Shown here: piece after piece, positions 20,801 to 29,800 of the stretch
Layout: the number at the start of each line of letters is the position of its first letter
How positions within the stretch are numbered: position 1 is the stretch's first letter
Assembly: GCA_965113315.1 (NCBI GenBank)
Contig: OZ220374.1
DNA: 64,000 bases
Source of the DNA: Podarcis vaucheri
Lineage: Eukaryota
Strand: one strand, 5' to 3'
Notes under the pieces: model-generated
Database searches by the model: none
The model's input: only the letters and a program-made list of their open reading frames with translations
Told to the model about the DNA's origin: nothing
Position numbers and translations under genes: made by a program

Positions 20801-23800
20801 ATGAATCCCAGAAATGACATTTCACGAAAACCGAATGAAGCTATAACACTTCCAGCCTGTATCCACAGTTAAGAAACTGGGAGTGACCCAATGGTCTCCC
20901 CTTCTTCCTCCAACTTTCCAGCAAAAGTATCCTTCCAAGCCTTAGCTTAGAGTGCATCTGCATTGGCACTCACAAGGTTCCCTTCTAAACTAACGCTTGC
21001 TAACCTGCTTCAGATTCTGGTTGTGGAGATCAGTGAACATACTGGGCCAAGAGTGATACCAAACTGAACAGGCTGACTGCAGATACCTCAGGGTATGTAA
21101 GTATCACCTACATGGAGGCTCAGAGAGCCCTGCTGGTAGAGGTATGTAAGAGGAAGGCCAAGGTAGTGATGGAGTTTTCTCCCCCTCTCATTATCTATGA
21201 ATTATGGCGTATCTCCACGCATCCCATGAACTACTCAGAATAATCTTATGATAACTGCCTAGTTATGCATTTTTATTCTGTATGACAAAAAGTGTGAGTT
21301 AAAGTTGATAATCCATCCTACTCAATTATACTAAGTTAAAGAAAATATATATTTCAACAGAAGAGATCAACTAGCAAGGTCTGGCATTAAAGTTGCTAAT
21401 TTGAATGTCATCAGTGGAACTGCTATTATTCATCAGTCTCCCGACAGCAGTTCCCTGAGTGATGTCAATGATCAAAAACTATTTAAACAAAACAAGAAAT
21501 CATTAAAGTAAATAAAACAACCATAAAACAGAGACCACAAGATTAGAAATCACAGCAATAATCAGTAAGACAGAGCTCCCAAAATGAATTTCACAGATCT
21601 AAAATGACCATGCTAAAATCACAGCAACATGCAAAGATTAAAGAATTAATTATTTCAATTAATAAATATAATCAATTTTAAAATGCCTGGGAAAATAAAA
21701 AAAGTTCTTTGCCTGGCACCAGAAAGGCATTAAAATGGGTGTCTCTGGCATTCCACAACCAGAAGGCCTTTTCCCTTGTAACTATTCTCTCCGCACCTCA
21801 GTATGCAAGGGGTACTAGGAGAAGAGTTTCAGATGATTACAGTGGTACCTCGGGTTACATATGTTCAGGTTACATACGCTTCAGGTTACAGACTCCGCTA
21901 ACCCAGAAATAGTATCTCAGGTTAAGAACTTTGCTTCAGGATGAGAACAGAAATTGCACAAAGGCAGCGCAGCAGCAGGAGGCCCCATTAGCTAAAGTGG
22001 TGCTTCAGGTTAAGAACAGTTTCAGGTTAAGAACGGACCTCCGGAACGAATTAAGTACGTAACCAGAGGTACCACTGTATTTCAAGGCTCAGATAAATGT
22101 AACTGGGAAGAAAATATCATTCAGCTACTGAGGTCCCAAGGGCTTTAACAGTAAAAGCTATTCTGTTTGGATTGGTAGGCCTCCTGTGGCATGCAAATGT
22201 CAGGCATACAGATTTAGACCACAGCTTCTAAAATCTATCTTGAAGCATGGTTACAGACAAACTTCTCTACCAGTCTACCTATCTGCAGTGTCACCTTCCC
22301 CTTTAATAAATCATGTGACATGGATATATTAATAAATTATGTAGCATGCCCTCAATTAGTTTCCACCTACTCTTGTCCTGCTGATTTACCCTGAGTAGTT
22401 CCTGCATCACCAGGATCTCAACCTCTTTCCCTATTCTACCACATTTTATACCCCAATATGGGCCAATTCTTACCAATAATTTGTGTCCTCTTCCCACATC
22501 CCTTCCTTGAAGAATAAAGAAAACCTAATATGGTATGTTCCACTTACAATGGTTCTTGTGTAGCATCTTCTAAGGAATTCCCAGTAAACTACTTCAAGAA
22601 TAGGTGAGCAAAGATGAGCCAGTCCGTGGTATTATTACTTGGCTCATTGACAAGAAAGTAATCTCAGCCATCCAACAGTACTAACTTACTTCCCTATAAG
22701 TCAGCAGTAGCCAATGTGGTACCCTCTAGATGTTATGGAGCCACCAACTCAAGTCAGAGTGGCCAATGGTCAGGGATGATGAAAATTGTAGCCCACAACA
22801 TGTGTCAGGTACCACAATGGCTATCCCTACACTAAGTCACAAGGTTACAACTTTCACCATTCCTATCAGCTTAGTCAATGATAAGAGTTTATGGGAGTTG
22901 TAGTTCAATATCATCTGGGGACCCAAGATTGAAGAATACTGTGATAGAAAAATAATGTAGTCAGATGGAATATAGCCAGCCTAACATTTTGTCCAGAACA
23001 AGTATTTAAATTTCTTTGCAAATTCTGCCCAAGTAAATTATTTCCTCATATTCAAGGTAGCATTTCAATGCATTCTATATTTCAATGTTAGTAACATATG
23101 TTGCGGTTAGGATGCAGATCCTTTGTGTCAAATCCAGTGAGCCATTTTTTAATCTAGAAGATTCATAGCATGCAGTGATGCCCATTACCTGCAAACTCTG
23201 TAGCCATCCAGGAAAAAGCTGAGAAAGAAAGAGAGTCTTTTGTAAGCAACTGCTCACCTATGTGGGCTCCACTGTTGTGACCAGCACATTCAGCTTCCTC
23301 TGGATGAAGTGTAAAAGCGTACAGAACAAAAGCCAAGAAATAAAGCAGAATAGTTAGATGCCCAGCCATGAATGCAAAAGAAGAGTTACTTAAAAATGAC
23401 AACTGCAGAAAGCACAGCATAAAAAGCCTTCAATATGCCACTGCTTAAAAATAAATCACTGTGTTGTTCTGAAGTTGAGCAAGAGATTTTGGAGTACAGC
23501 AACATGCATATTTAACTTTTCACTGTTTTATTGCCTTATTCATGACAGAAAATAAAGAAGTGATTTTAAAAGGTGTTCTACTTTATATTTTAATGTAGGA
23601 TAAAAAATACAACAGCTGAAACACAAAGGTAAAGAAATCTACAAAGAATATCAGGAGTTTTTGTATTTGGCTCAATGGATCGGACAGAAAGGGTATTTTT
23701 AATGAATATAACTTCTTAGGTATAAAATAGTATTGGTGCCTATTTTAATATACCAAATGTCTAACAAAATACTTTACAGCTTTTGGGTATATACAGATAG

Positions 23801-26800: not shown

Positions 26801-29800
26801 AGAAATATAGTTGTAAGATGCACAGAAAGGAAACTGACAAAAGAACTGGGCTGATGAAGTAACACAAATTACTTGAATGTAAATTGGAACACAACTGATG
26901 ATTTATATCAAGGATCTGTTTTATTATTAGTTGAACATGCAACTGCTTTGCGACAAGGTTCTAAATGTTTGCCATTTGCTATGCATAACAGATGCATGAC
27001 TCTATCCAGTATATTTGGGGGAAAGCAGGAGACATTCAGTTCAGTCACTGGCCTGCATCACAATGCACAGCAGCTCCATTTTATAAATGAGCATCAATTG
27101 ACAAACTATCATAAGCAGGATCACTAAGATTTTCGTGGACGTATAAAAATCTTAAGGTATACAATTGAATTTCCAAGCTATACTGAAAATATTTAACAAA
27201 ATTAGTATGTAAAAAGATTTGCATGAGAAAGTATAAAAACAAAAAATGCTAATGTATTTTTTTAAGTGGATAACTTTTAGGCAAAAATACTGAAATTCTT
27301 CAAATGCACTCTTCTGTTTGATGACACAGCAGACTGCAAAGATGAAGCCTGTATTAATGATGTCACCACAGCAGCAAGTGACCCAAGACAAGATGACACT
27401 GACTTTATATAATTTAGGACTGCAAATAGTCATAAAAAGTGAGGTCAAAGTCTGCTGTCCTTGCAATAGTAGGGATTATTAGAGGAAGACTCCTCACTAA
27501 ATGTCAGGAAGAATACTAGGTTTGAAAGAAGAGTGAAGATGTGTTTGGCTTGCTGACAAAATAGATAGTGGTATAAGGAGTTACAGTGTAGAATTCGACA
27601 AAATGAGTTTTACTTTCAGTGTTTGGGCGCCACATAAAAATTTGAATTGTGCACAATTAATTCTCAAAATTATAAAATAGGTTCCATCTTGCTTGAATGC
27701 ACACCATACTAAATCACATGATATTGATATTGAACTATATAAATATATTTGACAGTGATTAAATATTTCTTCTCTCACACTTAGTGAAAATTTTAAAAAG
27801 TATATAATTCAGTTTATATTTAATATCAAAATTACTATTTTATTTTGGTTATACACTTAACTAGGTCTTTCAGAGATTAACCACCCTATCCATTACACAA
27901 TGCTAATTATGGATTAACAATATTAAATTATTATTAGTCATATGAATGAGAAGACATGTGATACAGCTTAAATATAAAAGCAAACTACCATGGTAAAAAT
28001 CATGGTTCTGTTGGAAAGAAGGTGTTTTGGCCAGTATTAGTCTAACTGATTTTAATTACTGATGGTTCATGCTCTCTTTTGAAGACATATTACATCAAAT
28101 GAATGACAAGTTTAAGGGCACGTGCATAAGTTACACCATATAACAAATGTCACCAATTTCATGCAAATGTAGTCCAGTGCTATCCTATGTCAGAAATAGA
28201 ACCAGTTCACAAATATAAATGACTGTTTCTCCATGCTCCTGACCTGCAACACACACACACAATTCCATGCAACCATTTTATATTAATTTTCAAAAACCTC
28301 ACAGAAAGTGGCTCATCATCTTGCTGTCCAACTTCAAGTACACCAATAAAATGATTTGGTTTAGAGTAATGTTACTGTCTTTGTACTATAGAAGAATGAA
28401 CTACTGTGTTTTTTTTTAAACTAGAACTCTGAAACCTTCAAACATGCTATTTTTAGTCCATGATGAGAGATACTGTGCTTTCACATCATTTGCTTTTGAT
28501 ATAATTCTAATTAGGCACACAGAAAAAGTACTTGCTAGAATATTCTTGATACATTTTAAAACATATGCCTTAATGTTTTTGCATAATTTGGATCAAACCC
28601 ACTTCTTATAAGTCCTATTCAGTTCTAATAAGAAAAGCAGACAGAAAATTTGATAAGCATATGAGTGGTAACAGATCATATATCAGCATGATATTTATTG
28701 ATATGTTCTAAAAACATACTCCAAAGCAGCTTCACACAACCTCCGGATATTGTTGGACTATGCTTCAAAAGTAGGTGGTTGAGCCTGAAAAAAACACTGA
28801 CTTCACATGTGTCCCCTTTTGTGTAGTATTTAAATACCCAGTGAGTCATTAAGAATGCCCTTCCAATAATTAGAGATTGGCATATTTATTATTTTATTCA
28901 CTGTAGGGAATAGGTTTTACATAAGTATTGATGTCAGAAGCGGGGATAAACCATTTTCTTTAACGAAAATCCTATTCCTACAGCATCACAGGTTCTGGCC
29001 TGCTGATATATCTTAAGATACCAGCGCCATATCTTAAAAAGAGCTGATACAAGCCATATTTGTGTGAATGAAGGAATATGATTTCTAAACAGACTTACAT
29101 GATTTTCTATTGGAAACTTTCAAGGGCTGAACCTGTACATCTGATCTTCTTAGTGCAAGCCTCCTATAAAATGATTTGAGGGAAGGGGGGGGGGAGAGAA
29201 GCAAAACTCTTTATAATTTTCATAGCTATTTTGAGATTAACGCTCCATATCGGTCTTTTCCAAAGTATCTGATTTTTAGAAGACATTTTCCTAAACAATA
29301 CAGTCTACTCAAAGTCTATGAAATTAAATCCTAGAAGGGTTTTTTATGTTCTCCAAACACAGCTGCAGTTGTTATTCATGCATAGTACATCAATAAAGAT
29401 ACAGATACCAATGTACTATTTTCCATATGTTTTTCCTTTCCAAGGTGGATCACAAATATTCTATAAGGTTTTGTCATTATTAATGTGAATAGACAAATAA
29501 AGAAAACCAAACTACTTGGGCAACAACTTACGAAGTTCAGACATTTTACCATAAGACAAAACTTGAAAGTTGATTGACCTTATAATCCATAAGTGCAGGC
29601 ATAACAATTATATCAAAGATATACTGATCACATTTTAAGTATCAGAGAAATCAGAAACTGCTCACCTTTCTTGGAAATGCTTTGAAGGAATTAAGCCTGC
29701 CCTGGGATTGGCATTACCTTCAAGCTTGGCTTGCCACCAAGTTGCATCATCCTGGCTCATGATCTGAAGAATATCACCTTTTCTGAAAGGAAGTCCAGCT

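Follow-up and report, generated by a model that had tools for sequence, protein, structure and literature searches.

Frame-preserving microexons are normally scored as harmless, and pipelines that consider exon length only miss stop codons that are built at new exon joints. Such stops are described here for a cassette of small exons in the HOOK linker of MPP7 (MAGUK p55 subfamily member 7) of the lizard Podarcis vaucheri; the gene lies on the minus strand of a window of 64,000 nucleotides, the whole stretch of DNA that was analysed (contig OZ220374.1; G000:C33:44144001-44208000). The closest described event belongs to the paralog MPP3 and is listed in catalogues of alternative splicing that is linked with nonsense-mediated decay (AS-NMD, with NMD for the decay itself). 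The mouse Mpp3 exon of 21 nt, located between exons of 65 and 42 nt, carries the flag NMD_ex and a match to Yan et al. 2015 (PMC13078869, Tables S2a and S4a), and the human 21-nt exon is also NMD_ex, with a change in percent spliced in (delta-PSI) of 0 and no P value under cycloheximide (CHX) in induced neurons. In PMC11188260 a 21-nt Mpp3 exon is called 'Repressing', with r = 0.972 with gene expression, and stands in Table S4 of events that facilitate AS-NMD in differentiating mouse neurons; the text defines these events as CHX-responsive, yet Mpp3 is absent from the CHX-responsive Table S2. The Mpp3 exons of both sources are probably the same exon across assemblies, and its split codon is not discussed in the available parts of either paper. 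Since the exon preserves the frame, the stop that arises on skipping must presumably be built at the joint, which is T|AA in lizard MPP3.

For MPP7, the mouse 21-nt microexon is classified as NEURAL-UP with a PSI of 0.13 versus 0.40 in islets (PMC8395343, Table S2); judged by its length and by protein P0122, it is likely the ortholog of the lizard 21-nt exon. No row for an Mpp7 event was found among the rows listed from the tables of PMC13078869, in which Mpp7 occurs in the expression table only, or in the tables of PMC11188260. The available part of PMC13247117 makes no mention of MPP genes, and a search of the literature, mostly of non-subscription papers, gave no account of the MPP7 junction stop. 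The paralogous MPP3 arrangement is already catalogued, and the MPP7 cassette would join the known NMD-repressing exons as a conditional case.

The SH3 exon in the window is 100% identical to the MPP7 proteins of lacertid lizards, and one lacertid MPP7 isoform aligns exon by exon along the window from 56744 to 5693. Exon 11a, the first HOOK exon (Table 1), ends in a phase-1 T and the 12-nt and 42-nt exons begin with AG, so that direct joining of either exon to 11a gives TAG, in agreement with the initial annotation of this DNA. Translation of the exon combinations located this stop at the joint in 11a>12, 11a>42 and 11a>12>42, and bore out the claim that the 21-nt exon, which ends in G, avoids the stop by giving GAG. 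The reading frame is open for full skipping, for 21, 21+12, 21+42 and 21+12+42, and for 11a>30-nt. Two of these open routes had been overlooked in the initial annotation, namely joining of 11a straight to the next constitutive exon, which gives TCT, and joining of 11a to the 30-nt exon. Skipping of the 21-nt exon gives a stop only if the 12- or 42-nt exon is included, and skipping of the whole block leaves the frame open. No stop lies within the 12- or the 42-nt exon, both preserve the frame, and both are translated when they follow the 21-nt exon; they are not poison exons, whose inclusion brings in a stop or frameshift by itself. The two TAG junctions are not independent, because both result from one T and from exons with a Glu junction codon (G|AG).

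Six coding exons follow the junction stop, which by the 50-nt rule predicts decay of the TAG-containing mRNAs. The proposal that these combinations are NMD substrates thus stands as a prediction, which is in line with the homologous MPP3 event being NMD-repressing in the mouse and human tables; no MPP7 read across a TAG junction was seen. The accompanying claim that the stop forces coordinated splicing is overstated: NMD acts on finished mRNAs and a stop codon does not steer splicing, so it can only filter mRNAs once they have been spliced.

The initial annotation had named two ways in which its scheme could fail, either because the cassette exons are never used or because other acceptors remove the TAG. 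Regarding the first, annotated isoforms testify to use of the exons, since the 21-, 12- and 42-nt exons are all annotated from sharks to mammals, with orthologous inserts in sharks, rays, bony fish, turtles (long exon only), an owl and mammals. The MPP7 protein set, gathered by searches, comprises 255 sequences, mostly predicted RefSeq or Ensembl isoforms that are mutually non-independent. Among these, 99 carry no insert, five the 21-nt exon only, two 21+12, 51 the 21-nt and the long exon, and 29 all three. In 27 proteins 11a runs straight into a 39-nt version of the long exon, and one protein (Labeo) has a 15-nt form of the 12-nt exon, which likewise bypasses the stop. Ten contain the lacertid 30-nt exon, two (P0095 and P0115; mouse X8 and Rice's whale) end exactly at the last residue of 11a, and 29 are other, partial, ab initio or unreadable. 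Lacertid RefSeq proteins with 21+42 are P0003 and P0144-P0148, and gecko isoforms contain 21+12+42, with P0153-P0155 having the same four residues as the 12-nt exon. These residues were seen in gecko, owl, mammals and fish and in none of the lacertid proteins fetched; the 12-nt exon is presumably used in P. vaucheri as well.

With a size in the range of 3-27 nt, preservation of the frame and conservation from sharks to mammals, the 21- and 12-nt exons are microexons. A UGC motif close to the acceptor is a trait of neural microexons of the SRRM4/SRRM3 type; TGC is present upstream of the 21-nt exon at -24 and of the 12-nt exon at -12, also at -11 of an unsupported candidate exon, and does not occur within 40 nt of the acceptor of the 42-nt exon. 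In the protein set, only four lacertid species have the 30-nt exon annotated, directly behind 11a. Since the gap of 39 nt that separates it from the 42-nt exon is too short for splicing between them, the two exons are probably used either-or; reading through the 42-nt exon, the gap and the 30-nt exon as a single 111-nt exon would also be in frame.

RNA reads came from one raw run (X23) of a related organism and unspecified tissue, of which about 12% was read; the aligned stretch left out the 42-nt and downstream exons, and the downstream exon was recognised by loose read ends only. Among the loose-end rows listed, all 12 reads leaving 11a skip the cassette and continue into the next constitutive exon (loose-end consensus, agreement 0.99, one difference from the exon start), and 0 of the 12 enters a cassette exon. 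Among the rows listed for contigs X1, X2 and X6 no cassette joint was present, which is uninformative because contigs drop rare forms.

A second productive lead-in, an exon 11b ending in A that would give AAG, had also been proposed. It had been given no coordinates, and A-ending, frame-compatible candidates were sought in the sequence. The first candidate, of 17 nt, begins like 11a and has a purine-rich acceptor of -11.7 bits, according to a crude frequency matrix that was used for all splice-site scores given here; the second, of 11 nt, has an acceptor of 2.6 bits. The peptides of both are found in none of the 471 MPP7, MPP3 and MPP4 proteins, and neither candidate has depth in X23. Two further candidates, one of 55 nt ending in A (24206-24152) and one near 28330, were dropped as they do not keep the frame. 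All ten of the X23 junction reads listed that leave the SH3 exon go to 11a. With neither protein nor read support for the two candidates as mutually exclusive partners of 11a, exon 11b is unsupported and is treated as not real.

The second way of failing, removal of the TAG by another acceptor, is seen outside squamates, in the proteins with the 39-nt form and in the Labeo protein. The insert of the 27 bypass proteins starts with Tyr-Ala, as an acceptor three bases downstream would give (T|AT). Their owners are sharks, rays, sturgeons, paddlefish, bowfin, two turtles, rat and two buffalo, with one transcript assembly in addition, and none of the 27 is a squamate. Among 63 proteins with inserts of 21 or 25 residues, the long exon starts with Glu-Glu in 30, all of them squamate, and with Glu-Asp in 32, none of them squamate; one is unrelated. 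With a Glu-Glu start both acceptors give a stop after T, which shuts the bypass. Geckos still use the +3 site, only behind an exon that ends in G (P0023, P0155, P0156). In the window, the 42-nt exon starts with AGG and has AGs at 0, +2 and +6 only, so that there is no +3 acceptor and no NAGNAG site; the in-frame AG at +6 would give T|CT (Ser) and an open frame, but is weak (-5.9 bits). The residue at the 11a>21 joint is Ser in squamates instead of Tyr. As judged from sequence, dependence on the 21-nt exon appears to be strict in squamates and leaky elsewhere; this MPP7 joint would exist in a closed version in squamates and in an open one in other vertebrates.

The paralogs in the same genome allow further comparison. 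MPP3 (G000:C34) has a 65-nt exon ending in T, followed by a 21-nt exon ending in G and by a long exon (G000:C34:37389049, L002) with three tandem acceptors, which after the T give Ser, a TAA stop or Tyr. The 45-, 42- and 39-nt forms of this long exon are all annotated, and annotations of wall lizards and birds include bypass forms with Ser and with Tyr (P0197, P0198, P0262-P0265). An older wall-lizard MPP3 model (P0001) contains the SH3 exon twice together with a read-through intron, both of them probably artefacts of assembly or annotation. In MPP4 (G000:C2:1074321-1086257; L006, L009) the 65-nt exon ends in C, which makes a stop at that joint impossible, and is followed by predicted HOOK exons of 39, 21, 15 and 42 nt, a series that agrees with annotated fish MPP4. 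Three of the four predicted small exons start with AA or AG. Such starts need no gate as explanation, because they are present in MPP4 without an upstream T; they represent the ends of Glu codons. At the joint behind the 65-nt exon, S or Y is encoded in 225 of the 239 MPP7 and 115 of the 119 MPP3 proteins that were readable, a preference that does not separate a coding constraint from selection for the stop. In one genome MPP3, MPP4 and MPP7 would thus represent three states of one ancestral cassette: switch-like, with no stop possible, and a conditional filter.

We think it reasonably likely that the locus harbors an ancient optional HOOK cassette in which the junction stops follow from codon constraints and act in MPP7 as a passive filter after splicing. 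The 21-, 12- and 42-nt exons would be an old optional insert in the HOOK linker. The wrong combinations, 11a>12 and 11a>42, would be made at some rate and removed by NMD, while cassette-free and 21-nt-led forms would survive. The stops may be a by-product of two coding constraints, with 11a keeping its T for a Ser or Tyr codon and the later exons starting with the AG or AA of Glu codons, and decay would then filter without steering the choice of exons. This filter may be leak-proof in squamates only, where the change of Glu-Asp to Glu-Glu at the start of the long exon would have cost the tandem-acceptor bypass (T|AT, Tyr). In MPP3, with its near-constitutive long exon, the same stop likely is a real on-switch for expression, whereas in MPP7 it likely only prunes minor combinations.

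Several points weigh against a purely passive filter or limit the observations from which it is derived. The MPP3 data show that a stop of this type is usable for regulation, and two paralogs have retained the terminal T throughout the jawed vertebrates though it is a weak donor base; both favour a selected gate. No cassette joint, productive or not, was seen in the lizard reads (X23 rows listed). Annotated proteins are mostly predictions that drop stop-containing isoforms, so that the lack of 11a>42 proteins is circular evidence. Of the 147 MPP3 proteins that were readable, 146 possess the long exon, 135 of them along with the 21-nt exon, a share that is inflated as the MPP3 query contained the insert. 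The C at the end of the 65-nt exon of MPP4 is the lizard state only, and the squamate closure is read from proteins and this one DNA sequence, in a set without a crocodilian, tuatara or bird long-exon form of MPP7.

According to the gate explanation just mentioned, inclusion of the 42- or 12-nt exon without the neural 21-nt exon lowers MPP7 through NMD, in an arrangement that is ancestral, shared with MPP3 and tightened in squamates. The common T | 21-nt | A[AG] layout of MPP3 and MPP7, the entry of Mpp3 among the facilitating AS-NMD events of differentiating mouse neurons (PMC11188260), the regulation of the mouse Mpp7 21-nt exon (PMC8395343), the lack of squamates among the bypass proteins and the ending of mouse X8 and a whale protein exactly where 11a ends are all consistent with it. 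However, the whole MPP7 block can be skipped productively, and the bypass, which a gate would be expected to eliminate, persists from sharks to mammals. The two AS-NMD catalogues have no Mpp7 event in the rows listed, Mpp3 is missing from the CHX-responsive table of PMC11188260, and the human exon showed a delta-PSI of 0 under CHX in PMC13078869. On balance we regard a selected gate as unlikely. A stronger form of it holds that the split stop, predating the duplication that gave MPP3 and MPP7, is a lock-and-key gate in which the neural 21-nt microexon is needed before the downstream HOOK exons yield protein, with cells setting MPP7 levels through NMD and with a lock that a single Asp-to-Glu change, turning the bypass into a second stop, has made absolute in squamates; this, too, is doubtful.

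It is less probable still that the stop is never met, either because one microexon regulator co-includes all three exons or because the lizard TAG is bypassed through the AG at +6. That acceptor leaves the frame open, tandem acceptors serve in this way in other vertebrates and in MPP3 of the same lizard, and only 92 nt separate the 21- and 12-nt exons, which have TGC motifs upstream. Against this, the +6 site scores poorly, the 36-nt form it would give occurs in 0 of the 255 MPP7 proteins, and the bypass isoforms elsewhere show frequent inclusion of the long exon in the absence of the 21-nt exon, so that co-inclusion is not strict. Finally, the stop might yield a shortened but stable L27-PDZ-SH3 protein that lacks the GUK domain and works as a modulator, to which P0095 and P0115 with their end at that residue might point. 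This is very improbable, since the six downstream exons predict decay and since SH3 and GUK of MAGUKs fold together as a single module, which would leave such a fragment likely unstable. The preferred reading thus remains that of an optional cassette with a passive filter.

Table 1. Exons and candidate exons of MPP7 around the HOOK cassette (positions in the window).
Feature	Position	Strand	Description
MPP7 SH3 exon	29666..29862	-	197 nt, ends in phase 2; identity to lacertid MPP7 proteins; joint to 11a in 10 X23 reads and one X6 contig
Exon 11a, first HOOK exon	29099..29163	-	65 nt, phase 2 in, ends in phase-1 T, donor gtaagt; X23 depth and 12 loose-end reads
First 11b candidate, unsupported	26050..26066	-	17 nt, ends in A; poor acceptor, no protein, no X23 depth
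Second 11b candidate, unsupported	25764..25774	-	11 nt, ends in A; no protein, no X23 depth
21-nt microexon, key exon	24650..24670	-	starts with CT (T|CT Ser), ends in G; lacertid, anole, snake and gecko RefSeq isoforms
12-nt microexon	24546..24557	-	starts with AG, ends in G (T|AG stop; G|AG Glu); strong acceptor, weak donor
42-nt exon	23258..23299	-	starts with AG, ends in G (T|AG stop; G|AG Glu); follows the 21-nt exon in P0003 and P0144-P0148
30-nt exon	23189..23218	-	starts with CT, open after 11a; 39 nt behind the 42-nt donor; 10 proteins, four lacertid species
Next constitutive exon	16923..17093	-	171 nt, starts with CT; joint with 11a is TCT (Ser); X23 loose-end consensus

Some other features of the window are recorded here. 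The acceptor of the constitutive exon that follows the cassette (17094-17125, minus strand) is unusually poor (-2.8 bits), with its pyrimidines at some distance from the AG; this may make it easier for the cassette exons to compete. Microsatellites are located in the introns flanking the cassette, (AGAT)11 at 23795-23839 and (GTA)17 at 18950-19000. An intronic repeat at 25130-25400 has a read depth of 250-780, compared to about 5-10 around it, and draws many reads and contigs from elsewhere; it is likely an abundant transcribed element of the short interspersed type. Two opposite-strand copies of apparently one short interspersed element, at about 21800-22060 and 52095-52334, give near-identical spurious translations. 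Broken reading frames at 32691-33203 (minus strand) appear to resemble the end of the reverse transcriptase of a long interspersed element.

The known function of MPP7 is not changed by these results. What is added here is the closure of the bypass in squamates, the MPP4 control, the MPP3 entries in the NMD catalogues and the rejection of 11b, and the contrasts between paralogs and between squamates and other vertebrates provide a clean system for testing whether junction stops are selected or tolerated. The NMD-repressing cassette exons of PTBP2, GABBR1 and DLG4/PSD-95 act by frameshift and unconditionally. Similar to the MPP7 cassette, skipping of these exons leads to a premature stop and neural inclusion protects the mRNA (PMC11188260). 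The MPP7 exon, by contrast, keeps the frame, and the choice of the later exon decides whether a stop arises. In FGFR2, wrong combinations of exons 8a and 8b are likewise removed after splicing (PMC12322889). That system is an either-or choice between two homologous exons, while in MPP7 the later exons are allowed only after the first and there is no second 11a-like exon; a mutually exclusive pair of the FGFR2 type was not found for 11a (no 11b-type peptide, and every listed junction read on 11a). The 42- and 39-nt forms of MPP7 in other vertebrates imply, and the 45-, 42- and 39-nt forms of MPP3 reflect, tandem acceptors of the NAGNAG kind (PMC3250501) that decide between stop and sense; such a site is absent at +3 in the MPP7 gene of this lizard and is encountered in MPP3 of the same genome. 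Like the neural microexons of the SRRM4 programme, of which the mouse Mpp7 21-nt exon, listed as NEURAL-UP (PMC8395343, Table S2), is a likely case, the lizard exon is short, frame-preserving, conserved and located in a scaffold linker, but whereas those microexons are usually treated as inserts on the protein surface, the 21-nt exon of MPP7 also licenses two downstream exons. The closest counterpart is the 21-nt exon of MPP3 (PMC13078869, PMC11188260), a paralogous frame-preserving exon between exons of 65 and 42 nt. In MPP3 the long exon is nearly always present and a transcript that skips the 21-nt exon is productive only by way of a tandem acceptor, whereas in MPP7 the whole block is usually skipped harmlessly, an extra 12-nt exon is present and, in this lizard, the +3 acceptor is lacking.

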